Shown: positions 3,341 to 45,915, numbered from the stretch's first letter. The stretch is DNA of 64,000 nt from an uncultured Patescibacteria group bacterium (GCA_937921305.1 CAKZSU010000003.1:116599-180598); one strand, 5' to 3'. Made by a program: numbers and translations. The notes: generated by a model from the letters alone, not told the origin.

Positions 3341-3454
3341 AGATAACAGACAATAACTGACTGCCAATGGATGACTGCAAACAGCCAACGGAAAAAAGCT
3401 AATTACAAACAGTCAATAAATAAATAACGATTGATAATGCGTCTTCTTTAATCT

Positions 3455-4873
3455 TCATATTTTATCTACTTTGTGAATCCAGCGATTCCATGGCGTTTCT
3501 CGCTCATAGAGATACGCCGCTTGCAACACCTTTTCTTCCTCAAAATGATCGCCAATAATCGCCAATCCTAATGACAAATTCGTTTTTGAATCTCTGTAAC
3601 AAGGAATAGAAATAGCGGGATTTCCCGCAAGAGACGACGGTTCATTAAGCATGTCCACAACTTCCCCGAACATAGGATTTCCTTCGCTCGCTCCAACTTT
3701 CAACGCGTATCCAGGAGACGGTGTAGAGATGAGGAGATCGTATGAAGAAAATAATTGATCAAAATTTTTTTTGTATAACATTCGAACCTGTTGAGCTTTT
3801 ATATAATATTTATCGGCGTATCCCTTTGACAGGGTAAATGTTCCGAGCATGATTCGCCGTTTTGCTTCATTGCCAAAGTGTGATCGATCCCTGCCATATC
3901 GAATGCCGTCATATCGAGCCAAGTTGCTTGCCACTTCACTTCGTTGAACGATCGTATATACAGCGACAGCATAATCTGGAGAAAGAACCTTATCTTTTTC
4001 AAGTGTCTGAGAAAGTTTAATTTCATCAACGATAGCGCCATGAGACGCAAAAAGTTTCCCAGCGTTGATCACAACTTCTTTGACTTCTTGAGGCATATGC
4101 AGATGATCCATATATATAATGCCAATTCGCATTCCTTTCACGCCTTTTTGCAAAGACGATCGATAATCTGGAGCTTTTCGATTTGATGATGTCGCATCAT
4201 ATAGATCTTTTCCCGCCATATACCGCAAAAGAATCGCTGCATCTTCGACGGTTTTTGTCATTGGACCAGGGCAATCTAACGAAGATCCCATCGCAATGAC
4301 CCCAGCACGACTCACGCGACCGTAGGTTGGCTTCAATCCAACGCACCCGCACCAACACGCGGGAATTCGTATCGACCCAGCTGTTTCAGATCCAATCGCC
4401 GCGATGCACATATCTGCGGACACAGCGGCGGCGCTTCCTCCAGAAGATCCGCCCGGAGAATAATCGGGATTATCAGGATTTCGCGTTGTTCCAAAATCCG
4501 ATGTCTCCGTGCTTGATCCATGCGCCCACGCGTCTAAATTTGTTTTGCCAATAACAACGCCGCCAGCGTCTTTTATCCGCTTTGTCACTGTTGATTCGTA
4601 TGGCGAATAAAATCCTTCAAGAACGCGAGAAGACGCGGTCGTTGGGAGACCAACAGTTAAAAAGTTGTCTTTTATCGCTATCGGAACGCCAGCAAGATCT
4701 GTTTCAGGATTTCCTTTCTCCGATGAGTGTTCATCGATAGAGAGATACACATTCAACGTCGGATTTTTTTCTCGAATGAATGCATGCACCTCACCATGAA
4801 CCTCCTGAACGCTAACCTCTTTCGATTTGATCAATTCTATTGCTTTTGTAAGAGTTAAACGATGTAATGTCAT
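3455..4873 (-). CDS. gatA: Glu-tRNA(Gln) amidotransferase subunit A (amidase family)
   Basis: Carries the amidase signature GGSSGGSAAAVSADMCIAAIGSETAGSIRIPA. The listed ORF start at 4900 is TTG; the ATG at 4873 (MTLHRLTLTKAIEL) fits the GatA N-terminus and avoids overlap with gatC. Confidence 0.9.
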   Translation of the reverse strand: MTLHRLTLTKAIELIKSKEVSVQEVHGEVHAFIREKNPTLNVYLSIDEHSSEKGNPETDLAGVPIAIKDNFLTVGLPTTASSRVLEGFYSPYESTVTKRIKDAGGVVIGKTNLDAWAHGSSTETSDFGTTRNPDNPDYSPGGSSGGSAAAVSADMCIAAIGSETAGSIRIPACWCGCVGLKPTYGRVSRAGVIAMGSSLDCPGPMTKTVEDAAILLRYMAGKDLYDATSSNRKAPDYRSSLQKGVKGMRIGIIYMDHLHMPQEVKEVVINAGKLFASHGAIVDEIKLSQTLEKDKVLSPDYAVAVYTIVQRSEVASNLARYDGIRYGRDRSHFGNEAKRRIMLGTFTLSKGYADKYYIKAQQVRMLYKKNFDQLFSSYDLLISTPSPGYALKVGASEGNPMFGEVVDMLNEPSSLAGNPAISIPCYRDSKTNLSLGLAIIGDHFEEEKVLQAAYLYERETPWNRWIHKVDKI

Positions 4874-4880
4874 ACTTTCT

Positions 4881-5204
4881 TTATTCGTCTTGATAATCAA
4901 TCACTTGATCCACAACAATATATCCGTTGTGTGTTCGAAGAGCATTTGACAAAGCTTGTTCTTGCGTAAACATTCTTGATTCATCGACAATATCCTCTCT
5001 GGTGACATTTTCCAAATCCACGGCATGATAATCTTCATGAATATCCTTCGTGTCAATACGTTGCAGCTGATCTAAAACGATCATTGTTTTGGTAAACCCT
5101 TCAGCCAACGAAACAGCTTGCGTTTCATCTATAGGAATATTTGCAAGCTTTGCCACCATGTGAACATCTTGAGAACTAAATGTGTAAGTCATAGTTGAAA
5201 GCAT
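4881..5204 (-). CDS. gatC: Glu-tRNA(Gln) amidotransferase subunit C
   Basis: A ~100-aa protein immediately upstream of gatA in the classic gatCAB order, with a GatC-like acidic C-terminus. Confidence 0.75.
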   Translation of the reverse strand: MLSTMTYTFSSQDVHMVAKLANIPIDETQAVSLAEGFTKTMIVLDQLQRIDTKDIHEDYHAVDLENVTREDIVDESRMFTQEQALSNALRTHNGYIVVDQVIDYQDE

Positions 5205-5230
5205 TATATCATGCTGGTAGGATACGATCT

Positions 5231-5518
5231 ATGAGAGAATATCAAAAAGCGTTTCAAGCAATGCTTGAAGAAAACAAAGAATTATTTAACACCTTCAAAG
5301 CTGTTCACGACGCATACATGATAAATCCGGAAGCAAATAAAGAAAAATTTAATGAAATAGGAGCAACCGTTGTTGACATTGTTAGAGAAACAGAACGAAG
5401 ATTGTGCGCGCAAATGGGGAAAAGCGTCTATAGCAAATTTAGTCATCGCCTGTCTGAAAAGTTCTGGGAACAAGTTCGAACGATGTTTCCAAAAATCGAC
5501 TTTGTCGGCGTAAGATAG
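5231..5518 (+). CDS. hypothetical small protein (96 aa)
   Basis: ORF with an ATG at 5231 (MREYQKAF...); the listed ORF start at 5195 is TTG. No recognisable domain. Confidence 0.4.
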   Translation: MREYQKAFQAMLEENKELFNTFKAVHDAYMINPEANKEKFNEIGATVVDIVRETERRLCAQMGKSVYSKFSHRLSEKFWEQVRTMFPKIDFVGVR

Positions 5519-5520
5519 AA

Positions 5521-6129
5521 TCAAATCAATACTCTTCCCGTGTCGTAGTACCTTAATAAAGACAGGTCATTTCTTCCTGAAAAAAGCAATTCATTTATCA
5601 ACTTTTTCAATCGAATTCTATCAAATATACTGCTCCCAAGAAGAACCACGGGGACATGTTGATCTAATAAATCGGCGATCATGCTGGAAAATCGCTCAAA
5701 TGAGCGATGATTGAGCATCTTTCCAAATCCGAGATGAAAGTCAACATGACAATCCGGATTTATCTTCAAAAGCACGCGTCGTATTCTCTCTTGCAATCGA
5801 TGAGAAAAAAATGGAAACGCTCCTGATTCTTCTTGAACAGGAATTCTCATGGAAACAATATGTATCGATCTAGCATGACGAGCAATGCTTCGAAAGAACA
5901 CCCATTTATATGGATCATTATCATTCTGAAAGAGATGATTCATAACACCATCAAAATCTGTCCATACATCAACCAAAGAAGTGTCTTTTTCAAACGCTGG
6001 ATCGTCAAGAACATCGCTGACAGAACGGATATTCCGAATGGTTGGGCGATATTTCTCTGGAAGAGACGAAAGAGAACGATCAATCTCACAAGAAGGGCGT
6101 AAGAAAAAACAAATCTCCCGAGTATTCAT
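5521..6129 (-). CDS. hypothetical protein, co-oriented and contiguous with gatD (possible third gene of the murT-gatD unit)
   Basis: 203-aa ORF whose ATG at 6129 directly abuts the gatD stop at 6126. I recognise no confident family; motifs such as PDCHVDFHLGFG are present. Confidence 0.5.
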   Translation of the reverse strand: MNTREICFFLRPSCEIDRSLSSLPEKYRPTIRNIRSVSDVLDDPAFEKDTSLVDVWTDFDGVMNHLFQNDNDPYKWVFFRSIARHARSIHIVSMRIPVQEESGAFPFFSHRLQERIRRVLLKINPDCHVDFHLGFGKMLNHRSFERFSSMIADLLDQHVPVVLLGSSIFDRIRLKKLINELLFSGRNDLSLLRYYDTGRVLI

Positions 6130-19276: not shown

Positions 19277-20380
19277 ATGACATGGGGAAAATATACGTTC
19301 CTTTTCATTATTATAGTATACCTCGCGCTCTACTTCACGAAAGCGATCTATCTTGGCAAAACAGTCTATGGAGACGGCGTCTATTATTATGCATGGATGC
19401 GATCGCTCATCGTCGATCGAGATATCAATTTTGATAATGACTATGCGATGCTTGGAGGGGCGCAACCATCAACGCCTGACGGAAGAATAGGGAATGTGTA
19501 TCCCATCGGACCACCGTTGCTTTGGTCCCCATTCTTTGTTTTTGTCCATCAAATTCTAAAAGGAGACGGCTTTTCATTCACTTATCAAATATTTACTGGA
19601 TTGATCGCGTGTTTATACGCGATCGCCGGCCTTGTGTTGCTGTATCGATTGCTCGCATCTTCTGTTCAACCCCACATCGCAATTTTTACTATTTACGGCA
19701 TCGCGTTTGGTACGAATATGTTTTTTTACGGATCACTTGATACCATCACCTCTCATAGCATTTCGTTTTTTCTTTCTGTTGTCGCTCTTACGTTTTCGCT
19801 TCAAGGAAGCTCGTCGTTTCTGCTCGGCGCTTCACTCGGATTGCTCGCTTCCACAAGAACGCAAGATATCATCTATATGCTGCTCGCCTTGCCAATCCTT
19901 ATCCGTCAAAGATCCATTCAAACACTCATCCGTCTTGGATTGGGATGGTTTCTTGGATTTGCTCCAGAACTCTTCGCGTGGCAACTGCTCTATGGAACGA
20001 TTCTGAAAAGTCCGTATCTTGATGACTATCACTATTTTGACTGGTTTCATCCTCATCTTCTTGACACGCTTTTATCTTCAAACAATGGACTCTTTTTTTG
20101 GACGCCGCTCGTCGCGTTTTGCCTTCTTGGACTTATCCTGAAGAGAAAGTGGCTATTTCTTTTGATCTTTTTGCTTCAATGGTATCTCATCTCGTCGTGG
20201 TCGTTTTGGTGGCAAGGCGCGTCATTTAGCGGAAGAATGTTTATCAGTTTTCTCCCCCTCGCGTCGTTTGGGCTTGCATCTTTTTTACAACAATTCAACA
20301 AGACTGTTCAACTTCTTTTTATTGGATATTTCTCAATACACACAACCATCGCTATTCTTTTTTACCTTCTTCACACCTAA
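19277..20380 (+). CDS. polytopic membrane protein, putative GT-C fold glycosyltransferase (PMT/ArnT-like)
   Basis: ~10 TM helices. The ATG at 19277 (MTWGKYTFLF...) is preferred; the listed GTG at 19190 would overlap the divergent GT2 start. It is the only plus-strand gene in the locus. Confidence 0.45.
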   Translation: MTWGKYTFLFIIIVYLALYFTKAIYLGKTVYGDGVYYYAWMRSLIVDRDINFDNDYAMLGGAQPSTPDGRIGNVYPIGPPLLWSPFFVFVHQILKGDGFSFTYQIFTGLIACLYAIAGLVLLYRLLASSVQPHIAIFTIYGIAFGTNMFFYGSLDTITSHSISFFLSVVALTFSLQGSSSFLLGASLGLLASTRTQDIIYMLLALPILIRQRSIQTLIRLGLGWFLGFAPELFAWQLLYGTILKSPYLDDYHYFDWFHPHLLDTLLSSNNGLFFWTPLVAFCLLGLILKRKWLFLLIFLLQWYLISSWSFWWQGASFSGRMFISFLPLASFGLASFLQQFNKTVQLLFIGYFSIHTTIAILFYLLHT

Positions 20381-21896
20381 CGATTCCTCCCACTTCTCTT
20401 GGTGCGAGAAGATACACCGGCGGATCTTCCAATGTGAAGACTTGCGTATCGCAATATCCTTCATACTTCTCTGGCGTTCTTGTGAACACAAGAGGTCGTC
20501 GCTCCTTCACATATGTTTCCATCATGCTCGGAAGATCGGGATATATCGTCGATGTTATTCGTCCCCAATTTACATACACGCCGCGAAATGCATGAAATCG
20601 TTCGGGGTGAAAAAACTGATAAAACGCGATATTCGTGTCATTGATATAAGTAAGATGTGGATGCGACTGAAAGATAACGTCCATCGTATCATATGTATCT
20701 TCAATAAATAGCTGAAATTCTCTCGTCAGTGGAATTCCATGGATGATCGACAATCGATCAGTGAACGTGACGCCATGTTTCACTCGATCTATCCCATGCC
20801 AAACACTCAAACCCAAATTCAATCCAATAAGAAACAAAAAGAAAGGAAAGAATGATTTCCTCACCCGATATAAGAGATATACAAACATGCCCATCATCGG
20901 CGTTGTTGCCCAAAAAAAATGCAATCGTTCTGTCACCGGATAATACTGATGCCACGACGCGATACTCACACCACTGAGAACAAGAAGAACGCGGGATACT
21001 TTTGATGTATTACGAGTTATTTCATAATAAAAACTAACACAAAAGATCAACACCGATGATAATGGTAAGACAATCCATATCCAATATTCATGAATCGACC
21101 GCCAATAGCGCGTCGCAAGCAAACTCTTGAAAAGTTGGACAAAAGAAATTCCTCGCGTCTCCTGCGAAAACGGCACTTGCATCACCATAGATTGCAACCA
21201 CCAATCATTAAGAGATTCTTGCAAAACAAGAATAAGGAGTATTGGAAACGATCCCGCCATCGCGCCGAGGAGAAAAATCGTGTATCGCGATGCCAGACGA
21301 GAACGAAAGAAAAGAATGCCAATCACGCCAATCATTGCCATCATATGCGTTATGCCAACTGATTGTCGAAACCAAAAAACAATAGACGCAAAAACGCCGG
21401 TAAGAACAAGATATCGAGACGCATGCAGCTCGATGTATCGTATGAGCAACAACGCGCTAATACATTGAAACAACGCCGCAAACACAGACGACCACGAATG
21501 AAAAAACCACCAATACACAGGAGCAAGTGATATCCAAAGAAAAAATGCAAGCATGTTCCAACGAAAAGAAAGAAATCTTCTGTTAGTTTCCCACAGCACA
21601 ACAACGGTTAACGCGTACGCAAGAAGCGTCATCAATCGAAGAGACAATACATGTTCTCCAAACAATCGCAATCCCACGGCATGGACCCATGTGAACAACG
21701 CGCCGTATTGCGTAAATGTTTCTTTGAATAATATCTTCCCCTTAAGCACTTCCAACGCGGGCATAAGCACGATACCGTCGTGCGCCCCGTCAATATAAAA
21801 CAAGGAGAAGAAGCCAAAGACAAAACATGTGAAAAGAATAAGAAAAAAATGAACAGTAATCTTCACGGTAATATAATTGAAGGCAGGAAAGAACAA
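20352..21896 (-). CDS. polytopic membrane protein with C-terminal soluble domain, GT-C (GT39/GT83-like) glycosyltransferase candidate
   Basis: 514 aa with N-terminal multi-TM and a C-terminal ~150-aa globular part. The TTG start abuts the stop of the upstream gene, suggesting translational coupling. Confidence 0.45.
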   Translation of the reverse strand: MFFPAFNYITVKITVHFFLILFTCFVFGFFSLFYIDGAHDGIVLMPALEVLKGKILFKETFTQYGALFTWVHAVGLRLFGEHVLSLRLMTLLAYALTVVVLWETNRRFLSFRWNMLAFFLWISLAPVYWWFFHSWSSVFAALFQCISALLLIRYIELHASRYLVLTGVFASIVFWFRQSVGITHMMAMIGVIGILFFRSRLASRYTIFLLGAMAGSFPILLILVLQESLNDWWLQSMVMQVPFSQETRGISFVQLFKSLLATRYWRSIHEYWIWIVLPLSSVLIFCVSFYYEITRNTSKVSRVLLVLSGVSIASWHQYYPVTERLHFFWATTPMMGMFVYLLYRVRKSFFPFFLFLIGLNLGLSVWHGIDRVKHGVTFTDRLSIIHGIPLTREFQLFIEDTYDTMDVIFQSHPHLTYINDTNIAFYQFFHPERFHAFRGVYVNWGRITSTIYPDLPSMMETYVKERRPLVFTRTPEKYEGYCDTQVFTLEDPPVYLLAPREVGGIVRCEEGKKE

Positions 21897-23765
21897 TTAT
21901 CGCAACTCATACAAACGAATATAGGGATTTTCCCACAAAAAAGAAAGATGAGCCAACAGCGGACTGTCTTCAACGCGATGCGGAAGAAAGATATATCGAA
22001 CCCGAAGAGAACGCAACACATCAACCGCAGTATCAGGAATCGCCACGCCTGTCGGATCATTTGCTGGAACGCCAAACAGGGCTTGATATCGGCGATCAAT
22101 CATCGACGCGTATCCATCCACGATCGGAATATTGTAGATCATCAAAAGATTTGGCCGAAACATGCGGAATTGCCACAGAACCTCTCGTTCGATCCATGGT
22201 TCTCCAAATACTCGCATGTATGGCGAAGGATACAATGAGGGATGAACATAAAATCGATACCCGTCCTCCGTCCTTTCTCGTATTTCTTGAACAATGCGCT
22301 CTTGTTCCGCTTTCCATGTCATCACTACATGATAAGAAAGCGTAATCAGATTCATTCTGGCATATAAAAACAAATCAAGAAAAAGAAATAACACAACGGC
22401 AATATTTGACAATCGCGAGAAACGAGATGATATCGCGTATATCCCGAGCAATCCACAACCAAACAAGAGAGCATTTTGTTGTATCATCGAAAATATCGTT
22501 TGCACCCCGCGATCACCCAGAAACGCCAATTTTCGTTGCAATGACGAATAATTTAAAGAAAAAAGCATGCGATAAATTGAATCCTCAGCTGCTACAAATC
22601 CAAACCACATTACAAAAAAGAATATGCTTGAAAGAGCAACAATCTTTTTCGATAGTCCCCTTTGAAGGGCATACCCTGAAAACATCGCAAATGAAAAGGT
22701 GAACAAAAGCAAAAAATGACTCGGCACGCGAAACAACCTAATACCCGGAATGAGATGATAAAAAAGAGAAAATATCGGCGTTGATGATCCAAACGCGAGA
22801 AGAAACGAAAGAATACCAATCCCTGAGAAAAAAAGTTCATGGCTTGACCATTTTCTGCGAACGAGAAACGAGAAAAATAAAATCCACGGCGTTATTCCAA
22901 TATACCCATACATCGACCCTCCCTGCCACCACTCCGTTCCTTCAGAAAGATTGCCAACGATACTTGGCAAGAAAAAGCGAAAAATAGCGAGAATCTGAAG
23001 CGACCCAAAAGTAGCGTAGGAAAATCCGCTTCCAATGCGAGTTGAATGGAGCGCGTGTAAAACAAAAGGAAGCAACTGGGGCAACGCAAAAAATATCGTG
23101 GCAAGACATATAAAAACGAGACGCATTACTCGATAAACAAATGGAATGCGCAGAAATATCAACGCGTATACATAACACAAAAGAAACGAATAAAAGATGA
23201 GTTGAATATGACCGGCAAGTATCTGTAACACAGAAAACGAGACAACAAGTATCGCGGTTTTTTTTGATGGACGAGAACAATATAGAATCCAAGAACTAAA
23301 CACCAATGGAAGCCATGACGCAACCTGAAGCATCGGCAGATTGTTCGTGTACGAAACAATCGTTCCAGAAAAAACGAACACGATCGTGGCAATCATTCTA
23401 GACCAGAACGTCATCTGCACTACGCCCGTCACCCACAGCATACCAACGCCGGCAAGTCCGATATGAAAAAGCGTCACGATCGTCATACCTCGAAAGGGCT
23501 CGAAGAAAAGAAAAACAACATTGCCCGGATACAATGGACTTACATTAATATCAGCAAGAAACGGCGACCCCGAAAATAAGAACGGACTATCTATCGGAAA
23601 AACGCCAGATAAAAGAGATTTCACCCAAAATATTCTCGCCGGAATATTAATAAGCAAATTATCACAGCAATACACAATCTCATCAAACGCGATCTGCCGA
23701 TAAAAAAATATCGAAAAAAAAAGAAAAAACATTATCAACAAAAGGAAAATCGATTGTCTCTTCAT
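21897..23765 (-). CDS. large polytopic membrane protein (YfhO/GT-C-like), putative glycosyltransferase
   Basis: 622 aa with more than 12 predicted TM helices. No soluble catalytic domain recognised. Confidence 0.4.
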   Translation of the reverse strand: MKRQSIFLLLIMFFLFFSIFFYRQIAFDEIVYCCDNLLINIPARIFWVKSLLSGVFPIDSPFLFSGSPFLADINVSPLYPGNVVFLFFEPFRGMTIVTLFHIGLAGVGMLWVTGVVQMTFWSRMIATIVFVFSGTIVSYTNNLPMLQVASWLPLVFSSWILYCSRPSKKTAILVVSFSVLQILAGHIQLIFYSFLLCYVYALIFLRIPFVYRVMRLVFICLATIFFALPQLLPFVLHALHSTRIGSGFSYATFGSLQILAIFRFFLPSIVGNLSEGTEWWQGGSMYGYIGITPWILFFSFLVRRKWSSHELFFSGIGILSFLLAFGSSTPIFSLFYHLIPGIRLFRVPSHFLLLFTFSFAMFSGYALQRGLSKKIVALSSIFFFVMWFGFVAAEDSIYRMLFSLNYSSLQRKLAFLGDRGVQTIFSMIQQNALLFGCGLLGIYAISSRFSRLSNIAVVLFLFLDLFLYARMNLITLSYHVVMTWKAEQERIVQEIRERTEDGYRFYVHPSLYPSPYMRVFGEPWIEREVLWQFRMFRPNLLMIYNIPIVDGYASMIDRRYQALFGVPANDPTGVAIPDTAVDVLRSLRVRYIFLPHRVEDSPLLAHLSFLWENPYIRLYELR

Positions 23766-25507
23766 TTGAATACCAATATTGAATCAGCAACAATAGTTTG
23801 TATCCGATCGGGATCATAACGAGGAAGTTGATAGTACCCGCATTGATACCAATTTGTTACGCTAATCGCCGTTATTGATTCGCCACGATGGTCAGGATAT
23901 CGAATCGTATGAAACGCGCAAATTTCATCATTTTTATAACTTCCCCACGCACGATCGCTCTCAAATCCGTATGCCGAGCCATCATCTCTTCCAAAATAAG
24001 AAAAATAAAGTTCGCTTGGCTTTGCTTTATCGATATACCGCTGAAATGAAATCAATCCTTGTCCCCAGTCGATATTGCTATCAAACAAATACCGATATCG
24101 TTTTGTTCGAGAAATAAAACTATTTGTGAATGAAATACTATGAGGATATGCCGTGTATAACGAATACCCCATCCATGCAATCATTCCAAACAGTAGCGCC
24201 ATTTTCCATTTCGATCGAACATCCTGGAACGGATACCCTGCGACAATCGCCAAAAACGGAAACGATGGCAAGATATACCGAATAAGCGGTTGCATGCGAA
24301 CAAAACTAACAACAAAAACGATCGCAAAAATAGGAATAAGGAAGAGATATCGATATTCAGGATCGCGAACTCGGTTGTCTCGAATTGTTAGTTTATATTC
24401 AGGAATATGACTCACCATCTCCGACGATTGTGACTGATTCTGCGACGGATATTTTCTTATAAAAACGGTTTGTATCATGGTTATCAACAAGGATCGATGA
24501 TTTTCAGAAAGCACCGTCATAAAAAAACCAAGAACACACAAAAGAATCAATGGAAACGGAAGTTTCACCAGAGCTGCCTGAAGCATCATAAGAGGATGCA
24601 CCGACGGATGAAACATCCCCATATGAAAAACCGGTTGAGATTCTCTTGCGCGCAACGCATTATTCTTGAGAATTCCGATATAGTCCCCAAGCGGAACAGG
24701 CGTCCCCTGCAACCAAAGAATTGCCTGTTTTAACAAATTCAGATTCCTTTCCTCGGCAAACGCAATGAGTCTATTCGACAACCGCTCGGGATTATCATGC
24801 GGAACAAGAATGGAAGTAAAACGAAAAAAATATGTGCTCCATACAATAAACCCCGCGACACATACCGCAAAGAAGAAATGTCTCACATGATATCTACACC
24901 ACGAAAACGACCACACATTACGTTTCAAAATCAACACAAAACACATGCTTGCAAATAAAAATGGCAATGCAGAAATTTTTGACGCCAATGCAAGTCCTAA
25001 AAAAATCCCGAAGAAAAAAAATTTTGTCATGGTCGGAGAGGAAAACGCGTCAAGAAATGAAACATACGCAAGAAATATGAAGAGCGTTGCCCCGATATCA
25101 GATGTAATGTAATGACTGTGCGCAAGAAATGTGGGCTCTAGCGCCAAGACTATGCCAGACGCAAGAGAAGACGCTTGACCGATATATCGTCGAGACGCTT
25201 CCATCACCTGCCATAAAAGGATTGACGCTAAAAATACAATAACCAAACGATTCAAAAGATATCGTTGAGAGGGTGTTCCTTCAGATGGCGTGAATCCAAG
25301 CACGGATGGAATTGACGCAAGTTCTCGTATAAGCGGAGGATTGTACGGTTCAATGGGAAACTCCTGTTTTGTAATATTTGTGAACCCTTCCTGAAGATTA
25401 AAAATTTCATCAAATGTCAATGATTCTTGAAGAGCGCTTCCTAATGTTGCTACGATAAACACTGCGACGATTCCCCATCGCAACAATCGATAGAGCGTAC
25501 TGCTCAT
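23762..25507 (-). CDS. GT-C fold glycosyltransferase (ArnT/PMT family-like)
   Basis: First extracytoplasmic loop contains TFDE (the DE motif typical of GT39/GT83). 581 aa, multi-TM. Confidence 0.5.
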   Translation of the reverse strand: MSSTLYRLLRWGIVAVFIVATLGSALQESLTFDEIFNLQEGFTNITKQEFPIEPYNPPLIRELASIPSVLGFTPSEGTPSQRYLLNRLVIVFLASILLWQVMEASRRYIGQASSLASGIVLALEPTFLAHSHYITSDIGATLFIFLAYVSFLDAFSSPTMTKFFFFGIFLGLALASKISALPFLFASMCFVLILKRNVWSFSWCRYHVRHFFFAVCVAGFIVWSTYFFRFTSILVPHDNPERLSNRLIAFAEERNLNLLKQAILWLQGTPVPLGDYIGILKNNALRARESQPVFHMGMFHPSVHPLMMLQAALVKLPFPLILLCVLGFFMTVLSENHRSLLITMIQTVFIRKYPSQNQSQSSEMVSHIPEYKLTIRDNRVRDPEYRYLFLIPIFAIVFVVSFVRMQPLIRYILPSFPFLAIVAGYPFQDVRSKWKMALLFGMIAWMGYSLYTAYPHSISFTNSFISRTKRYRYLFDSNIDWGQGLISFQRYIDKAKPSELYFSYFGRDDGSAYGFESDRAWGSYKNDEICAFHTIRYPDHRGESITAISVTNWYQCGYYQLPRYDPDRIQTIVADSILVFK

Positions 25508-38129: not shown

Positions 38130-39200
38130 CTATATTATACGAATTTGCCGCGTTCTTCGCAACGACCACAATATACCAATGCCAACACATAATGAAATAA
38201 ATGAACTCCCGCCATACGAAACAAATGGCAGTGTAATGCCAGTAATCGGAATAATTCCCATATTCATACCTGCGTTTACAACTAATTGAACGCAAATAAT
38301 ACTAAACAATCCGAAACTATATAAAAAAAGCAGATCGTCGTGCTGAGATGGTCGCATAAATGGCCGAATAATTCGCCAAAGCACTATGCCATAGAGCGCA
38401 AAGAGCGCAACACCACCAACAAATCCTAGTTCTTCGATAATCGTCGCAAAAATAAAATCCGTATGGTATTCAGGAAGAAACTGAAGGTGGCTTTGCGTTC
38501 CTTTTCCTAGTCCTCTTCCAAACAATTGACCACTCCCAACAGAAATCATCGCTTGCAACGCGTTGTATCCAACTCCTTTTGGATCAAACGACGGATTAAG
38601 AAAGGTTAGAATCCGCAATTGTTGAAACGGTTCAAGCATATTCCATGCAAACGGAACAATCGCGATGCCGACACCAGCTAATACCGCAATAAACCATAAT
38701 GAAATGCCGCCAACAAACATCATAGATGACCAAAATACGCCATATACAATCGCTGTTCCTAGATCCGGCTGTTTAAAAATAAGAAAAAATGGAATAAGAA
38801 AAAGGAGTGCATGTAGAGGGAAAAAACGAATCTGCCTCGGAGAGTATCGAGTTATCGTGGTCGCAAAAAACAACAAAAATATCGGCTTGAGCAGTTCTGA
38901 TGGCTGAATTTGAATCGGACCGAGAAAAATCCACCGAGACGCTCCCCGAATTTCTGGGCTAAGATGCGTCACTGCAAGCATCGCTACGGCAAAAGCGTAT
39001 AAATATGGAGCAAGATAGATAAAAAATACTCCATCAATGCGAGAAATCGCCACAAGAAGCAAAAATCCCACGACAACAAAAACCAGCTGTTGAACGAACA
39101 ACGGAGATCCGAGAGAAAGCAAGGTAAACAACCCAAACAACGAAAGAAAAAAGAGCAAAAAGAGCGTTACCCAATCGATATCTCTAAAGACTCTCCCCAT
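38130..39200 (-). CDS. rodA: SEDS family peptidoglycan glycosyltransferase (RodA-like)
   Basis: Ten TM helices and the SEDS signature GSGQLFGRGLGKGTQSHLQFLPEYHTDFIF. Confidence 0.75.
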   Translation of the reverse strand: MGRVFRDIDWVTLFLLFFLSLFGLFTLLSLGSPLFVQQLVFVVVGFLLLVAISRIDGVFFIYLAPYLYAFAVAMLAVTHLSPEIRGASRWIFLGPIQIQPSELLKPIFLLFFATTITRYSPRQIRFFPLHALLFLIPFFLIFKQPDLGTAIVYGVFWSSMMFVGGISLWFIAVLAGVGIAIVPFAWNMLEPFQQLRILTFLNPSFDPKGVGYNALQAMISVGSGQLFGRGLGKGTQSHLQFLPEYHTDFIFATIIEELGFVGGVALFALYGIVLWRIIRPFMRPSQHDDLLFLYSFGLFSIICVQLVVNAGMNMGIIPITGITLPFVSYGGSSFISLCVGIGILWSLRRTRQIRII

Positions 39201-42079
39201 GATACTGTTGAAGCTACGGTATCGCGGGCGATTTGGTCAAGAGTAGATTTTGGCAACGATTGATACCGCGTCGGTAAGACGAGATGAATCTTATCTTTCA
39301 GCGTAAGCTTCTTTTCTTTTCGCAACGCTTGGATAGATCGGATAAGTTCGCGAACCGCTCGCTTCTCCTCTAGTGCTTTTGTAATCTCCATATCAAGAGA
39401 TACCGTCATTTCTCCATATCGCTTATCTAAAACAGACACAGCATCAACAGACGGCTTCTCGAGAGAAGGAACATATCGCTCTACATTCACTTCATCCTGA
39501 ATCGTCTTCAAAATATCTGGAACGCGGGAAAACACCTCCATATCAACGCCCTTCAAACTCCATGCATCAAGCGGTTGTTTGATAGGAAGCGCGTGTTTCT
39601 TTCGCAACGAATGAAGTCCTTCAACGATGGTTCGAGAGAGTTCGACAAGCGACTCAAAATCATCGTTAATCACGGCTTCATCATAAGACGGCCACTCTTC
39701 GTGATGAACCGACTGTTTTTCATGAGGAAGATTTTGATAGATCAATTCAGCGATAAACGGAACAATTGGCGCGATCACGACCGAAACTTGCTTGAGAACC
39801 CAACCAAATACTCGCATTGTTTGAGGGTCGTTTCTAAATCGCTCCCTGCTCCTTCGGAGATACCATGTGGAGAGATCGTCAATAAAGGATGCGATGTGGC
39901 GACACGCAAACGGCGTATCATACCCATCAAACGCCTTTGTAACATCGCGAATCAGTCGATTTGCTTTGCTGACAATCCATCGATCAAGATCGTGCGCGAT
40001 CGATGACGGCAATTCGATGCGATCTTCCTGCAATCCGTAGAGTTTATAAAACGAAAAGGTGTTCCACAAAATAGTGATAACCCGTTGATACACCTCGGCA
40101 ACGCCTTTTTCAGAAAAGTTTATATTTTCTCCTTTCATGACAGGAGACGCCATAAGATAAAAACGAAGCGCATCAACGCCATACTTCTCAAACAAAATCG
40201 ACGGATCGGGATAATTCTTTTTTGATTTGCTCATCTTTTGTCCATCTTCCGCAAGAATATTTCCCGTGGTCACGGCGTTTTCGAATGTGTGTTTTCCAAA
40301 CAATCCAACAGACATCACATGAAGCGTATAAAACCACGCGCGTGTCTGAGCGATGTATTCAGCGATAAATTGCGCCGGGTGGGTTTTCTCAAACACTTCT
40401 TTATTCTCGAAAGGATAATGAATGGACGCGTACGGCATGCTTCCAGACTCTACCCAACAGTCAAATACTTCCGGAATTCGCTTTCCTTTGATCGTTCGGT
40501 CATCATCAACCCACACTTCGATATCGTCCAAAAACTCTCGATGAATATCGGTCAGCCCTTCTACTTTTTTCGGATCTACTGCCCACTGCTGTAATTCCTC
40601 AATCGACCCAATAATTCTCATACTTTGCTGTCGACCGTCCGCTGGCTGCTGGTAAGCCTTCCAAACCGGCATCGGGGTTCCCCAATACCGCGATCGAGAA
40701 ATGTTCCAATCTGGCGCGGTTTCAACACCTTTGCCGAATCGTCCATATTTCAAATGAGACGGATACCAATTGATGCATTCGTTGTGTTTCAACAGATCAG
40801 GCTTTAGTTTTTGAATATTGATAAACCACGCAGGTACCGGCGCGTGATACAAGCGTGTCTCGCACCGGTAACATACCGGAACGCTATGGACGCGCGTTTC
40901 ATCATGATAAATAAGCCCTCGCTTCGCCAAATCTTCATTCACCAGAGGGTTGACATCAAGAATATACATGCCTGCCCATGGTTGCACCTCTGGCTTAAAT
41001 CTTCCCTCGCTATCAACATGCTCGACAAGCTGGACATGATGAGAAGTCATTACGCGAAAGTCATCTTCTCCATACACCGCAAGCGTAACAATACCCGTTC
41101 CTTCTTCATCGGCAACATACGAATCGGCGATAATAACACCCGCTCGCTCTCCTTCCGATCGCGGATAAAAATCGTAATGCAACGCGAAGGTAAACTGTTC
41201 AAGCTCTTTTCCCTTATACGATCCTTCAACTGTATATTTTCCCCGAAGCATAGAGGAGGCCCTGCTTTCCGCAAGAATGTAGCGTTCATCTCCTTGTCTT
41301 ACAACGATATAGGCAATATCAGGATTCACCGCCAATGCCGGCGTAGCGAGTTTATTCCACGGGGTTGTCGACCACGCCAAAAGGTATGTGTTTTGCAACT
41401 CGTTTACTTTGTATTTATAGGTCGTGCTCGGACCCGGCAGATCTTTATAACTATTATCCATCGCGATTTCAAAGTTGGACAACGGCGTCGCGCACCGAGG
41501 ACAGTACAAAATCACTCGCTTTCCTTCATAGACATATCCTTTCTCCCACAATGTCTTAAACGCCCACCACACGGATTCCATGTACGAGATATCCATTGTT
41601 TTATACGAATTCTTGAAATCCACCCATCGGCCAATCCGGCGAATCACTTTTTCCCACTCTTTGTCAAACCGTAGAATCGCGGCTCTGCAGGACGAGTTAA
41701 ACTTGTCTATCCCCATCGCTTCTATCGCTTTTTTTCCTCCTTTTAACCCCAATTCTTTTTCCATCATGTTTTCGATCGGTATACCATGACAATCCCATCC
41801 CCACACCCGCTCCACGCGATATCCTTTCATGGTCCAATAGCGAGGGATAACATCTTTAATCGTAGAAGCAAGAATGTGCCCGTAGTGCGGGGTGCCGGTG
41901 GCAAACGGCGGACCGTCGTAAAACACATACCTTTTGTTTTCCGGACGAGACGACACAGAAGTCTCAAACGCGTGTATTTCCTCCCAATACGCTAGCACAT
42001 CGTATTCTTTTTTCACCAAATCCTGCTTTTCTTGAACATTTTGAATAGCGAGACGATCGACGACTGAATTCATATACAT
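39167..42079 (-). CDS. ileS: isoleucyl-tRNA synthetase
   Basis: HIGH (PHYGHIL), KMSKS (GQKMSKSKKNYP) and the class I editing-domain architecture. Start set at ATG 42079 (MYMNSV...), which is preceded by AAGGAGG; the listed GTG at 42172 lies inside the T-box leader. Confidence 0.85.
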   Translation of the reverse strand: MYMNSVVDRLAIQNVQEKQDLVKKEYDVLAYWEEIHAFETSVSSRPENKRYVFYDGPPFATGTPHYGHILASTIKDVIPRYWTMKGYRVERVWGWDCHGIPIENMMEKELGLKGGKKAIEAMGIDKFNSSCRAAILRFDKEWEKVIRRIGRWVDFKNSYKTMDISYMESVWWAFKTLWEKGYVYEGKRVILYCPRCATPLSNFEIAMDNSYKDLPGPSTTYKYKVNELQNTYLLAWSTTPWNKLATPALAVNPDIAYIVVRQGDERYILAESRASSMLRGKYTVEGSYKGKELEQFTFALHYDFYPRSEGERAGVIIADSYVADEEGTGIVTLAVYGEDDFRVMTSHHVQLVEHVDSEGRFKPEVQPWAGMYILDVNPLVNEDLAKRGLIYHDETRVHSVPVCYRCETRLYHAPVPAWFINIQKLKPDLLKHNECINWYPSHLKYGRFGKGVETAPDWNISRSRYWGTPMPVWKAYQQPADGRQQSMRIIGSIEELQQWAVDPKKVEGLTDIHREFLDDIEVWVDDDRTIKGKRIPEVFDCWVESGSMPYASIHYPFENKEVFEKTHPAQFIAEYIAQTRAWFYTLHVMSVGLFGKHTFENAVTTGNILAEDGQKMSKSKKNYPDPSILFEKYGVDALRFYLMASPVMKGENINFSEKGVAEVYQRVITILWNTFSFYKLYGLQEDRIELPSSIAHDLDRWIVSKANRLIRDVTKAFDGYDTPFACRHIASFIDDLSTWYLRRSRERFRNDPQTMRVFGWVLKQVSVVIAPIVPFIAELIYQNLPHEKQSVHHEEWPSYDEAVINDDFESLVELSRTIVEGLHSLRKKHALPIKQPLDAWSLKGVDMEVFSRVPDILKTIQDEVNVERYVPSLEKPSVDAVSVLDKRYGEMTVSLDMEITKALEEKRAVRELIRSIQALRKEKKLTLKDKIHLVLPTRYQSLPKSTLDQIARDTVASTVSWGESLEISIG

Positions 42080-42345
42080 TTTTACCTCCTTATCAATGCG
42101 ATTCAATACTATATACTTTAAACGCGTATCACAAAAAAGCCGCTCTCCTTTTTGCGAAGGACGAGCGGACACACTCGTGGTACCACCTTGCTTCGTTTTA
42201 CCGAAAGATATAGTAAAACCTCATTGTATAGCTATTACGGGCATACCCGTCAGGGTCTACTCTCCTTCTCGGATTTCTTCCTGAGGCTCGTTCCGTGATT
42301 GCGGAACTCAAACGCCGTTATTTTTTTGTATATTTACACTATACC
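42080..42345 (-). promoter_or_regulatory. T-box riboswitch leader of ileS
   Basis: On the minus strand there is a T-box sequence AAGGUGGUACCACGAG (plus 42174-42195). It is immediately followed by a terminator hairpin and U6 (plus 42133-42168). An upstream Stem-I-like region holds GGAGAGUAG and an AUC triplet (GAAAUCCGAG) as candidate Ile specifier. Confidence 0.6.
42133..42168 (-). terminator. T-box attenuator terminator (intrinsic) upstream of ileS
   Basis: RNA: CCGCUC G UCCUU CGCAAA AAGGA GAGCGG followed by CUUUUUU. The 5' arm can alternatively pair with the T-box sequence as an antiterminator. Confidence 0.55.
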
Positions 42346-42828
42346 ACATCCTTTCCATATTCGTCTATCCCATCAATCATTTCTATCAAGGATATTGAGT
42401 TGATTATCTTACTCTTTGCTTCACTTTGCAAAAAATTTTTTGTTTAAATCTTTCTTTTGATTCAAAACATACTTTCATAAAAATGTACAATACAAGAAAT
42501 CTCAATAGAGTATCGCGTGAATTATTTCGTTATTTATTGCAACTCATGCATGAGAAATCACTTACTTTAAATAGTAGATATCATTATAGCTAGGTAAGCT
42601 ATTCTTAAAATCATTCTTCACTCAATTGAGCGATAAAAATCGATTGAATTCGATCAATAAGTTCTTGAAACGAATATCGTTGAATAATAAACACAAATCA
42701 ATACAATCTTTCCATTCTCCTTCTTGCTGAATCAAGAAAGGAGAGTTCATCGTTTAAATTATTAAAAAATCTCGCATTACTTGTAAAACTTTGTGAAGAA
42801 CAAAAAAATGAATACTAAAAAGAAAAGT

Positions 42829-45800
42829 TTATTCTCTGACAAAGAGTATAAAAAACAACGAAACAGGGAGCAATCCAAATCCTATCCACTGCAACAATTG
42901 CGGAAGAAAAAATAAAATGATTGTTCTTTGCTTTGAAGAGGGCGAAAGCTCCCACCCATTCGCCCAATTATTGACAAGCACATGATTTCGTAACGGTTTT
43001 CCAAAAAGAAACGGAATCATCCTCCCCAACGATGAATCAATTTCATATGCTTTCCATCCCGAGTGAAATGATTGATATAACGCAAGAATTCCTTTCTCCT
43101 CTTGCGGAACGAGAGAAACAACATAATATGTTGGATAAGGATGAAATACATCAGGGGCAACAAATGTATGAGGAACAAATTCTCTCTTTTCTTCTTTTTG
43201 CACCATCAAACCCATCATCCATAAATAAGGGATTTGATGAACAACAACACGATGCAATTCATTTCTTGTTTGCTCATTACCAATAGAAAGATTATCAAAG
43301 TTAATCGTATATCCAAAGCTATATGGTTCTTGCGGTGGGATCACAAAGTGATTCGTAAAAATATCTTTTGCTGATTGAGGTTCTAAATAGGTGTCATAGA
43401 GCAATCGTTTTGTTTGGTGATTTGTAATTGAGATAATCAACGGTAAATTTTCTATATGCTTTGAATCAACAGTAACCACATATCCCTGTCGTTGCAGAAG
43501 AAATGGAAGAAAAAAATCAATACAATTGCTTGAATGAAGACTCGTTAGCGTAAGAACATTTCGTTGTTTCTCTTTTCTTACCTCTTGCATCTTTACTCCA
43601 TCATTAAATGCATCGCATGTTTTCGGTTCTCGAATAAAATTATTCCACGCGTCGCTATTGTAGCTATACAATCCATATACTTTCGGCACATGAACAACAA
43701 TCCGATCACTCAATCCATCGATAAGCATCGTCGCTCCTTTTGTTGCAGTGTCAAAAGAAAGATCAATCACTTTCTCACCATAGACAATACGAGGAAAAGA
43801 ACGATACGTAATTCTATCGTCATCAATCGTAAGCAATGAATCATGATCAAATGGAGGAATCGTCATCACCCCACGAATATCCTTTGAAAGAGATGCTGAA
43901 AATTCGTAACCCTGATCATATTCTTGAATAGTTATCATTCGATCTTGAATCATTTTCCCAGTGAACAAAGAACGAAATGGAAAATATATATCTGGATAAC
44001 CTGTCGATGTTTTATATGGACCAATCATCTCAAACGCCTTATCGATATCCATCGTAATCGCTTTTGGCTGAACTTCCGGAAGTGAAGTAACAAAAGAAAC
44101 ATGCTGATTTGCGCGTTCAGGTCGAACAATACGATAGATATGAATCGATCCAAAGACGCTCTGCTTCTCAAAACGATCATCTTTCACATCTCCATTCAAC
44201 AATTTCTCAAGTGTGAACGATCCAGATTCTTTATCGTGTAACACGATGTTTGTATCTATGAGTAGCCAATCAATCGCGTATTTCCGCAACACTCCATGAA
44301 ATCGATCAATCGAACCCTCCGCCAACGCTTGCGTGCTTTCCCAATAAAAATTTTCGTTATGATAACTCCACGGATCGAATGCGCGATCCATAATCGGCTG
44401 AGGAATACCAAACCATTGAAACCCAGACCCGATCACCCCCCAGCGATACTGCGTCCACGCCCAATACCAAGGAGCTGGAAAAACAGCAATGCGTTGATCA
44501 TATCGTTGCTCTTGAAAAAAACGAAACATATCAAAATATTCCCGAGGAATCGCTACACGAAGATTGCTATGTAAAAAGTGTCCTTGAAACGATGGAAGTG
44601 TTAAAAGGAAAAGTAACACGCTAACAACTGCATGAGCAGCAACAACTATTAATTTTCTTTTTTCAATAAACTGAAAGAAAAACAACAATCCAATTCCAAA
44701 CAACAACGAGAATACCAAACTATACGAGATAAAAAATTTTGTATATACAAATCGAAAGATAATATGAACAAGAGGAAACAACGATCGAATCGCAGTATTT
44801 GCTTGCTCAATCAACGGGATATTATTCCCAATAACAAATAAACTAATAAAAAACCAAAGAACAAGAGGAACACCAGAACTTTGTCGCTTAATCACAACGC
44901 TACCTATCCCTACTATAACAATGCCAAAAACTATCCATCCAATCGGTTCATACCATATCTGAGATAGATGCTCCCGCCATGGCTTCATCATGTAATCAAC
45001 TACTCCTGTAGTATGATCAAGCTGCACAAACTCCAAACTAAAACTCTTTAACAGCGCAAAACTTCTCACATCTCCATATTCATGATTTTTTAAATAAATC
45101 TCATGACTTGCTCGCTGATTATTTTTCGAATTTGCAATGATATGGGCGTTATGTATTGTAGAAGCAATATACGGAAGCCCCCAAAACGCATTTGCAAAAC
45201 ATATTAAGAATATACTGACGAAAACTGGCTTTGGAGATCGTTTTGCTGAAATATGATGAAAAAGGAATACAAAAACAAACATGGTATATACAATAAACAC
45301 TGTTGGGACATGCGCCATCGGCGTAGCAAGAAATGATATAAGAAGAAAGAAAAACGACCGCTTCACGGAAATACGATCCAACAAAAGCGCAAGCCCAAAC
45401 AAAAGCCAAGGCAACCATCCAAAATAAGCGATAAACGGCTCAAAAGGAAGATAAAACATCTGCACAGTTGCAAAATTATATTGATATACTAACGCTGATA
45501 ATGCACCAACAGACCGAACAAATTCTTTTTGTGGATGATTTCGAAATAAAAAAGAGAAAAGAATATAGACTCCTATCCCACCAAATGCATGCATGGAAAA
45601 AATAAAGACATATCGAAGGAGATGGTGGGGGAAAAATAGGGACAACAAAAATATATAAACATAATGAACAACATTTGCAGCGTGCGACATTCCATCCTCT
45701 AAACCAAGTCCTCGATACTCTTGCCAAACACTGGTCAACGCACGAATGATATTAAGGGAAAAATGAAATTCAGGAAAATTATTATCCCACCCAACAACAT

Positions 45801-45915
45801 ATGTTCCGGAAAGATAGTTCTGAACAAATAGCGTGAGGCTTAAAAAGATGATAATAAAAAAAGGGCAATACCGAATAATTACCCTCTGAAGAAATCTCTT
45901 CATCAATTTAAGCAT
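42829..45915 (-). CDS. 1028-aa polytopic membrane protein with large extracytoplasmic C-terminal domain (GT-C-like glycosyltransferase candidate)
   Basis: ~13 N-terminal TM helices (~450 aa) followed by a ~550-aa soluble domain. ATG start. The adjacent GT2 gene supports a glycan-assembly role. Confidence 0.4.
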   Translation of the reverse strand: MLKLMKRFLQRVIIRYCPFFIIIFLSLTLFVQNYLSGTYVVGWDNNFPEFHFSLNIIRALTSVWQEYRGLGLEDGMSHAANVVHYVYIFLLSLFFPHHLLRYVFIFSMHAFGGIGVYILFSFLFRNHPQKEFVRSVGALSALVYQYNFATVQMFYLPFEPFIAYFGWLPWLLFGLALLLDRISVKRSFFFLLISFLATPMAHVPTVFIVYTMFVFVFLFHHISAKRSPKPVFVSIFLICFANAFWGLPYIASTIHNAHIIANSKNNQRASHEIYLKNHEYGDVRSFALLKSFSLEFVQLDHTTGVVDYMMKPWREHLSQIWYEPIGWIVFGIVIVGIGSVVIKRQSSGVPLVLWFFISLFVIGNNIPLIEQANTAIRSLFPLVHIIFRFVYTKFFISYSLVFSLLFGIGLLFFFQFIEKRKLIVVAAHAVVSVLLFLLTLPSFQGHFLHSNLRVAIPREYFDMFRFFQEQRYDQRIAVFPAPWYWAWTQYRWGVIGSGFQWFGIPQPIMDRAFDPWSYHNENFYWESTQALAEGSIDRFHGVLRKYAIDWLLIDTNIVLHDKESGSFTLEKLLNGDVKDDRFEKQSVFGSIHIYRIVRPERANQHVSFVTSLPEVQPKAITMDIDKAFEMIGPYKTSTGYPDIYFPFRSLFTGKMIQDRMITIQEYDQGYEFSASLSKDIRGVMTIPPFDHDSLLTIDDDRITYRSFPRIVYGEKVIDLSFDTATKGATMLIDGLSDRIVVHVPKVYGLYSYNSDAWNNFIREPKTCDAFNDGVKMQEVRKEKQRNVLTLTSLHSSNCIDFFLPFLLQRQGYVVTVDSKHIENLPLIISITNHQTKRLLYDTYLEPQSAKDIFTNHFVIPPQEPYSFGYTINFDNLSIGNEQTRNELHRVVVHQIPYLWMMGLMVQKEEKREFVPHTFVAPDVFHPYPTYYVVSLVPQEEKGILALYQSFHSGWKAYEIDSSLGRMIPFLFGKPLRNHVLVNNWANGWELSPSSKQRTIILFFLPQLLQWIGFGLLPVSLFFILFVRE

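Follow-up and report, generated by a model that had tools for sequence, protein, structure and literature searches.

A predicted terminator-coupled T-box leader with an ultrashort Stem I upstream of ileS in a Patescibacteria bacterium

T-box riboswitches with an ultrashort Stem I have reportedly been described by Sherwood, Grundy and Henkin in 2015 for the ileS genes of Actinobacteria. This class is presented in bioRxiv 10.1101/2023.02.28.530422 and PMC7583486 as translational and as confined to Actinobacteria and to ileS, with examples from Mycobacterium tuberculosis, M. smegmatis and Nocardia farcinica and with the structures 6UFG and 6UFM (cited in PMC7583486). Here we analyse the leader of ileS, the gene of isoleucyl-tRNA synthetase (IleRS), in a 64,000-nt stretch of DNA from an uncultured Patescibacteria group bacterium (GCA_937921305.1 CAKZSU010000003.1:116599-180598; the whole stretch is called the window, and positions are counted from its first letter). 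A complete T-box leader occupies 42316-42133 on the minus strand, 5′ of the ileS ATG at 42079, with all described elements within 42080-42345. Judged from its own sequence and those of its relatives, the leader is a genuine relative of the T-boxes whose Stem I is greatly reduced, and we have high confidence in its predicted specificity for tRNA-Ile. It probably uses this ultrashort Stem I scaffold to respond to tRNA-Ile charging and to attenuate the transcription of ileS. As a terminator-coupled T-box with an ultrashort Stem I in the Candidate Phyla Radiation (CPR), it belongs to a widespread and apparently undescribed variant.

Published accounts usually place T-boxes in ‘Gram-positive bacteria’ (PMC12647780) or in Firmicutes and Actinobacteria (PMC7583486), and TBDB ran its class II (translational) model in Actinobacteria only (PMC7778990). 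Gene regulation in CPR bacteria was called ‘virtually unknown’ in a 2024 perspective (PMC11665869); no published T-box from Patescibacteria or the CPR was found in the literature that we searched, although the primary 2015 paper on ultrashort T-boxes may mention such variants. The distal platform of Stem I is considered essential for co-transcriptional function, and expendable in translational T-boxes owing to their relaxed kinetic demands (PMC7583486).

Likened by description rather than by alignment, the leader resembles the actinobacterial ultrashort ileS T-boxes in its short Stem I helix, in the AUC and purine of its terminal loop and in having no elbow platform; both kinds of leader also combine an S-turn-bearing Stem II with an IIA/B pseudoknot, a Stem III and a standard discriminator, and in both the regulated gene is a type 2 (MupA-like) ileS. 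The known members are described as acting through a sequestrator and anti-sequestrator of the Shine-Dalgarno sequence (SD), whereas the window has a terminator hairpin followed by six U residues, with its SD 41 nt further on. They are also described as restricted to Actinobacteria and ileS, whereas the window is low-GC CPR DNA and its sibling leaders, found in CPR-type contigs with at least nine other specifiers, precede valS, aspS, argS, serS, proS, thrS, lysX, ilvB and ppc-type genes. With canonical class I T-boxes (RF00230; for example tyrS and ileS of Bacillus subtilis), the leader shares the UGGN bulge and the mutually exclusive antiterminator and terminator with a U-run. Like them, it has a kink-turn (K-turn) at the foot of Stem I, keeps Stems II and III and the IIA/B pseudoknot, and is predicted to allow read-through when the cognate tRNA is uncharged. 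What it lacks is their long Stem I (about 100 nt), which has an internal loop for the specifier and a distal platform of double T-loop and AG bulge (the interdigitated double T-loop motif, IDTM) that stacks on the tRNA elbow. The minimal T-boxes of the glyQS type (Bacillus, Geobacillus) are likewise naturally reduced transcriptional T-boxes in which not all domains are obligatory, but what glyQS has lost is Stem II and IIA/B, whereas its Stem I is long and still has the platform; the RNA in the window shows the reverse. By this comparison, the leader belongs to the T-box superfamily but misses defining features of both class I and the ultrashort class.

Architecture of the leader

A scan of the whole window with Rfam at the gathering threshold reported only four tRNAs and no T-box. 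A permissive search of 41900-42900 aligned the full RF00230 model (positions 1-219) with 42321-42154 from end to end (52.5 bits; E = 2.1e-10 in this 1-kb search), with 78 consensus positions of Stem I replaced by 10 nt and a good match over all that follows, starting with the 3′ strand of the K-turn. R1, a covariance model of related leaders that is introduced below, scores the leader at 106 bits as its sole match in the window, the window being one of its 41 seed sequences. The conserved T-box sequence is present, with a 7-nt bulge of the form UGGN-ACC inside the antiterminator helix, and the specifier AUC fits the amino acid of the downstream ileS. An earlier note on this DNA, made from the sequence alone, had proposed a T-box leader here with a terminator/antiterminator pair and an AUC candidate specifier; these proposals are borne out by the alignments, by the TIGR00392 match of the downstream gene (752 bits) and by folding, and the specifier loop could be placed. 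The Stem-I-like region that it had noticed is also present, but is not canonical: it is ultrashort, carries the specifier in its terminal loop and lacks the elbow platform.

Stem I (Table 1) is made up of a basal helix, GGC/GCC, a K-turn-like GUUU bulge with tandem GA/GA, and a 6-bp helix, GUUCCG/CGGAAC, capped by the 6-nt apical loop CAAUCA. Stem II has a proximal helix, UCAGG/CCUGA, and a distal hairpin, UCC-GAGAA-GGA, separated by an internal loop in which GAAGAAA faces AGUAGA (an AGUA/GAA S-turn motif and purine string). The leader contains the T-box sequence AAGGUGGUACC, its T-box core AAGGUGGUACCACGAG lies at 42189-42174, and the antiterminator consists of two helices, A1 (AAGG/CCUU) and A2 (ACGAG/CUCGU), around the 7-nt bulge UGGUACC. 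The terminator hairpin is followed by CUUUUUUGU (42139-42131). The leader as a whole is more stable than shuffled sequences (z = -2.75), and its minimum free energy (MFE) structure includes the Stem I hairpin, IIA and the terminator. Transcription is predicted to start at about 42331, roughly 15 nt 5′ of Stem I, and motifs resembling TGnTAtAaT also occur about 10-15 nt 5′ of Stem I in three related loci (L191, L009 and L001).

The IleRS of the window resembles the type 2, MupA/MupB-like enzymes. Its public-database entry (P0001) is a GTG-extended open reading frame (ORF) of 1001 aa at 39167-42172, the first 31 codons of which cross the antiterminator, the terminator and the U-tract. The ATG at 42079 stands 5 nt after the SD AAGGAGGU and agrees with the N-termini of homologues, so the start of ileS is, on this evidence, ATG 42079 and GTG 42172 is an over-extension, as the earlier note had held. 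The GUG directly after the U-tract opens a frame of only four codons.

Table 1 Features of the ileS leader in the window
Feature	Coordinates	Strand	Sequence, details and basis
Candidate promoter	42367..42338	-	-35-like TAGACG 42367-42362, 18-nt spacer, extended -10 TGgTATAGT 42346-42338; consensus match only
Ultrashort Stem I domain, 32 nt	42316..42285	-	Rfam alignment, MFE fold, R1 alignment
Specifier AUC (Ile) 42299-42297 with conserved purine A 42296	42299..42296	-	apical loop of Stem I
Stem II	42284..42250	-	Rfam alignment, alignment A3, R1 alignment
Stem IIA hairpin CGG GUAUGC CCG with IIB pseudoknot partner UAAUA-GCU	42249..42230	-	alignment A3, covariation
Stem III, 7-bp hairpin (GGUUUUAC ... 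GUAAAACC-like)	42220..42195	-	Rfam alignment, fold; flanks purine-rich AAUGAG and GAAGCA
Discriminator (T-box sequence and antiterminator)	42189..42157	-	AAGG-UGGUACC-ACGAG...CUCGU-CCUU
Terminator hairpin CCGCUCgUCCUU-CGCAAA-AAGGAGAGCGG	42168..42140	-	11 bp with 1-nt bulge, -15.4 kcal/mol; part of whole-leader MFE structure
U6 tract	42138..42133	-	context GG-C-UUUUUU-GU; directly after terminator hairpin
AU-rich spacer, ~40 nt	between U-tract and SD	-	sequence
SD of ileS, AAGGAGGU	42091..42084	-	41 nt past U-tract, outside terminator hairpin
ileS, 970 aa from ATG 42079	39167..42079	-	TIGR00392, 752 bits against a cutoff of 621

Structural conservation

A motif scan first showed a T-box core just 5′ of ileS in many CPR loci. 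Alignment A3, which holds 41 leaders after anchor-based trimming and carries a structure written from the window sequence, was used to build R1. When searched against the window and 83 loci that had been picked by their IleRS protein alone (666 kb), R1 gave 28 matches, in the window and 27 of the loci, all of them on the ileS strand and 5′ of ileS.

Across these 28 protein-selected leaders, 92.1% of the cells form standard pairs compared with 61.3% in shuffles, compensatory changes occur at 24 of the 26 pairs, and values as high as those observed did not arise in any of 500 shuffles; once the 3′ partners are shifted by 1-3 columns, pairing is down to 30-52%. The R1-fitted alignment favours the structure, but the margins are nonetheless large. 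Double changes are seen in every helix, including the short Stem I, all five modelled pairs of which show compensatory changes. The proximal helix of Stem II is 97% paired and its distal helix 92%, with compensatory changes at 8/8 pairs, and for A1 and A2 the paired share is 98-99%, 7/8 pairs showing compensatory changes. The IIB pseudoknot, which a covariance model cannot represent, was judged from sequence pairs and covaries in the same set (AGC:GCU, CGA:UCG, CGGAA:UUCCG, GGC:GCC, GCA:UGC and AAGG:CCUU). The specifier and its purine stand out in alignment A3, in which A18, U19 and C20 are invariant and A21 nearly so.

Other parts of the scaffold vary. Stem III is optional, many family members, including many ileS leaders, being without it. 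In the argS leaders of L193 (1007-1200), L108 (8284-8500) and L164 (6815-7010), Stem II is a plain hairpin without the GAAGAAA/AGUAGA loop, and an extra hairpin stands between Stem I and Stem II. The T-box scaffold of the family is modular.

Specifier codons and downstream genes

Metagenomes were scanned with a pattern that covered only IIA/B and the T-box core (GCCCGTAATAGC N15-45 GGTGGTACC) and left Stem I and the expression platform unspecified; as the pattern decided which loci entered the set, nothing can be learned there from invariance of the columns it covers or of the UGGU base. The scan yielded 109 loci, and R1 matched 98 of the first 100. Nearly all members have a Stem I domain of 28-31 nt with a loop of the form NN-codon-A. 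Stem I was misplaced by the covariance model where a leader has an extra hairpin or a long loop (L002, L047, L054, L061, L092, L089, L100, L117 and L126) and was corrected there by eye; downstream genes were named by NCBIfam.

The loop codon fits the downstream gene for 10 amino acids in these related leaders. AUC precedes ileS, including divergent IleRS genes (L139, L159 and dozens more); GUC precedes valS (L090, L114, L165, L092 and L117, and L177 through a methyltransferase-valS operon) and the acetolactate synthase gene ilvB (L089, L130 and L138); and GAC precedes aspS (L091 and L154) and an archaeal-type phosphoenolpyruvate carboxylase gene (L087). Further pairs are AAC with a non-discriminating Asp-tRNA(Asn) ligase (L173), AAG with lysX (L107 and L132), CGC with argS (L086, L108, L122, L164 and L193), AGC or UCC with serS (L133, L175 and L142), CCG or CCU with proS (L100 and L170) and ACC with thrS (L137). 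After the manual correction of Stem I, no discordant pair of codon and gene was found among leaders with an identifiable amino-acid-specific gene; two leaders, L162 (CsaA-like) and L106 (YbaK-like, AAC), were left without an assignment. The search pattern did not include Stem I, and the concordance of codon and gene independently supports decoding of tRNA-Ile by the 6-nt loop of the window. ARAGORN found one tRNA-Ile(GAU) in all sequences gathered, on the Peribacteria contig L073 beside that contig's own ileS T-box; in this tRNA, which belongs to another CPR genome than that of the window, the anticodon GAU complements AUC and A73-CCA complements UGGU.

Among leaders that precede genes other than ileS, a CPR origin is indicated for the lysX cluster, which includes Candidatus Roizmanbacteria proteins, and for the ArgRS of L108, whose named relatives are from the Patescibacteria group and Woesebacteria. 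L193 has an R1 match (59 bits) 5′ of ArgRS P0154. This ArgRS is also found on a contig of 659,672 bp, a length shared with the longest contig on record for the SerRS of the serS leader L175; if these are one and the same, a single CPR organism would employ the scaffold for at least two amino acids.

Several of these loci have features of interest in their own right. At L087:8931-10628, a GAC ultrashort-Stem-I T-box stands directly 5′ of the archaeal-type phosphoenolpyruvate carboxylase gene (TIGR02751, 493 bits), which suggests tRNA-Asp-dependent control of oxaloacetate and aspartate supply. An AAC leader stands before the non-discriminating aspartate-tRNA(Asn) ligase at L173:1559-3556 (minus strand), another precedes a stand-alone YbaK/EbsC-like deacylase of 156 aa at L106:3568-4208 (minus strand; identical in L144), and the GAC-controlled AspRS at L154:33-2107 has a C-terminal YbaK-like domain; the three hint at a link of YbaK-like editing domains with Asp/Asn-tRNA in these organisms. 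A leader with the loop ACCGAA at L162:35-527 (minus strand) precedes not a synthetase but a 121-aa CsaA-like tRNA-binding protein. The T-box-controlled ValRS at L092:6331-9408 (1026 aa, on a 963-kb contig) holds an inserted histidine-phosphatase-like domain, its residues ~435-592 matching alpha-ribazole phosphatase and dPGM-type models.

Expression platform

The antiterminator folds at -5.4 kcal/mol and the overlapping terminator hairpin at -15.4 kcal/mol, and the strand common to both is CUCGUCCUU. As the 5′ arm of the terminator is the 3′ half of the antiterminator, the two hairpins are mutually exclusive. To count as a terminator in relatives, a hairpin of -7 kcal/mol or below had to be followed directly by at least five U residues within 110 nt of the T-box. 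This holds for 71 of 103 non-identical low-GC leaders (69%) compared with 32 of 600 random positions in the same loci (5.3%), and the 5′ arm of the hairpin overlaps the antiterminator in 69 of the 71; runs of 5-8 U residues exactly at the foot of a stable hairpin are 13-fold over background. None of the seven high-GC leaders, which are probably actinobacterial-type, passes.

The distance from U-tract to start codon, taken in 66 leaders, is at most 3 nt in 15, 4-20 nt in 17, 21-100 nt in 27 and more than 100 nt in 7, and many of the 51 leaders with a start more than 3 nt away have an SD of their own after the U-tract. Where the SD is separate and 3′ of the U-tract, as in the window (SD 41 nt and ATG 54 nt past it), L085, L089, L090, L170 and L175, the hairpin cannot sequester it and termination is the only plausible read-out. 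The case that the leader acts by transcription termination is good but indirect.

A different arrangement is seen at L002:2274-2500, L009:2322-2480 and L191:1281-1505, where a U7 tract abuts the AUG and the only SD-like sequence is in the 3′ arm of the hairpin. One hairpin may serve there both as terminator and as sequestrator of the ribosome-binding site.

Source organism and close relatives

The closest named IleRS proteins (58-79% identity) are from the Patescibacteria group, the Microgenomates group and Candidatus Gottesmanbacteria, and the GC content of the window is about 41%. An IleRS-alignment scan of species-representative genomes yielded 80 loci, nearly all of them from the CPR (Gottesmanbacteria, Microgenomates, Saccharibacteria, Falkowbacteria, Moranbacteria, Berkelbacteria, Peribacteria and others), with 10 of the 80 labelled as DPANN or other archaea. 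By these protein relatives, the host is a Patescibacteria/CPR bacterium, Microgenomates- or Gottesmanbacteria-like. The earlier note had held that the limited distribution of T-boxes bears on the taxonomy of the source; that hint pointed the wrong way, the host being neither a Firmicute nor an Actinobacterium.

One of the three closest relatives, L191 (74% IleRS identity to the window), has a T-box leader. The other two, L190 (79%) and L192 (75%), keep the ileS-rodA/ftsW-rplU synteny of the window and have no T-box 5′ of ileS (L190:1192-1500; L192:397-1500). As it is absent from two of the three closest relatives, the T-box is dispensable in the lineage, and it is gained or lost over short evolutionary scales.

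A candidate archaeal T-box was rejected. It lies in L054, a 6.8-kb contig of a ‘Promethearchaeota archaeon’ bin, where T-box, hairpin with U7 and ileS stand together at 2278-5650. The IleRS of this contig is nearer to the CPR (880-972 bits) than to the archaeal loci (697-773), and the contig is probably mis-binned rather than the carrier of an archaeal T-box.

Proposed mechanism and alternative readings

We infer the following course of events, which includes the binding of tRNA, a part for Stem II and IIA/B, and termination itself. Transcription would begin near 42331, and the terminal loop of the 32-nt Stem I would offer its AUC-A to the tRNA-Ile anticodon, GAU. Without a distal platform for the tRNA elbow, Stem II with its S-turn and the IIA/B pseudoknot would presumably brace the codon-anticodon pairing, by analogy with the actinobacterial ileS T-boxes of known structure. 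The 3′ ACCA of an uncharged tRNA would pair with the UGGU bulge and stabilise the weak antiterminator, allowing RNA polymerase to read through into ileS. With the tRNA charged or absent, the much more stable terminator would form and transcription would stop 54 nt short of the ATG, at the U6 tract. The default state would be termination, the standard T-box arrangement.

Several observations weigh against this scheme. The RF00230 score of 52.5 bits falls below the gathering score of 93, an outcome that the earlier note had named beforehand as refuting a T-box; the score is low because 10 nt stand in for 78 model positions of Stem I. Only two of the three IIB pairs in the window are standard (GC:GC), the third being a U-U mismatch, no tRNA-Ile gene was found in the 64-kb window, and the two close relatives L190 and L192 are without a T-box. 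Canonical intrinsic terminators are not enriched in the window (14 compared with 15.8 expected; in a stricter scan, 5 compared with 4-9 in shuffles), which gives no independent sign that the organism relies on hairpin and U-tract termination; the general scan missed the terminator of the leader itself owing to its 1-nt bulge. According to the kinetic argument, transcriptional T-boxes need an elbow-binding platform for fast tRNA capture (Zhang 2020, PMC7583486), and as the RNA in the window has no such platform, this argument too counts against attenuation.

The leader might instead act on translation, like the ultrashort T-boxes of Actinobacteria, or as a dual switch, with the hairpin serving mainly as an SD sequestrator and the U-run only as an A/U-rich spacer or translational enhancer. 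We consider this improbable, although the hairpin carries an SD-like sequence (AAGGAG) in its 3′ arm and, in the MFE structure of the read-through RNA of the window, the true SD is weakly paired to the U-tract (unpaired probability 0.45). In the 15 of 66 leaders in which the U-tract abuts the start, an SD-like 3′ arm lies 8-13 nt upstream of it (L002, L009, L191, L104 and others), and the hairpin of those relatives could both terminate and sequester. In the window, by contrast, the SD and the ATG are outside the hairpin and well past the U-tract, and the GUG after the U-tract gives its 4-codon frame only; the start is more than 3 nt from the U-tract in 51 of the 66 relatives, many with their own SD, and the 13-fold enriched U-run at the foot of the hairpin is absent from the high-GC members. 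Another reading is that the leader is a decaying, non-functional T-box remnant, or that hairpin and U-tract are simply the terminator of the upstream gene. The missing T-boxes of the two closest relatives (79% and 75% IleRS identity) and the lack of terminator enrichment would suit such an account, which we nonetheless regard as very unlikely: all family-invariant positions are intact, R1 gives 106 bits, the end of the upstream ORF, at 42829, is some 660 nt distant and a promoter-like element intervenes, and the 5′ arm of the terminator is exactly the 3′ strand of the antiterminator.

Least credible of all is a canonical class I T-box whose long Stem I with distal platform was missed or mis-aligned. 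RF00230 does align over its full length, and Stem II onward looks canonical. Just 32 nt separate the outer ends of the basal helix strands, however; the predicted -10 element, about 20 nt 5′ of Stem I, is too close for a stem of greater length; covariation is seen in the short hairpin, whose terminal loop carries the codon in more than 100 relatives; and the RF00230 gathering score is reached by none of the 20 labelled CPR loci with confirmed leaders. We rejected, for the window, a canonical long Stem I, SD sequestration and an upstream-gene terminator, and retain attenuation of ileS transcription on an ultrashort Stem I as the favoured reading.

Genomic neighbourhood

Downstream, the stop region of ileS overlaps the start of a rodA/ftsW-family gene (38130-39200) by 34 nt (39167-39200). 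The T-box may also affect this cell-wall gene, if it is co-transcribed with ileS. On the other side, just 5′ of the leader, lies an ORF of 1028 aa (42829-45915, minus strand) that has no NCBIfam match and stands in DNA of lower GC (0.35-0.38). A perfect-looking hairpin without a U-tract, UCUCCUUUCUUGAUUCAGCAAGAAGGAGA, is found at 42716-42744 (minus strand), about 85 nt past the stop of this ORF; the upstream transcript may end here, and the weak Rfam match of the hairpin to the plastid psbA 3′UTR family (21.5 bits, E = 0.39) is surely spurious. Elsewhere in the window, three consecutive ORFs of 514-622 aa at 20352-25507 (minus strand) have no NCBIfam match.

Discussion

The related leaders raise the prospect that CPR bacteria hold a lineage-wide, unrecognised T-box class that combines an ultrashort Stem I with an intrinsic terminator, spans at least 10 amino-acid specificities, governs synthetases and a few biosynthetic genes, and lies below the Rfam threshold and hence out of sight of standard annotation. 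We regard this broader proposal as evenly balanced.

T-boxes rank with the RNA-RNA sensing systems that are understood best. Current models tie the long Stem I and its platform to fast, irreversible co-transcriptional decisions, and the ultrashort form to reversible translational control of actinobacterial ileS only. If truly co-transcriptional, the CPR leaders would contradict the need for a Stem I elbow platform in transcriptional T-boxes. Widespread ultrashort T-boxes that end in a terminator would offer a direct test of the kinetic argument, as tRNA would have to be captured before the polymerase passes the terminator, and would enlarge the known sequence space of tRNA-decoding modules.

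There is a consequence for annotation as well. Since none of the 20 CPR leaders passes RF00230, such leaders and the correct ileS starts are missing from annotation; thresholds at the Rfam level would miss the whole group and leave over-extended ileS calls such as the 1001-aa entry for the window. For the organisms themselves, leaders of this kind would give CPR bacteria a concrete amino-acid-responsive regulatory system, one that would be relevant to their dependence on hosts for amino acids.

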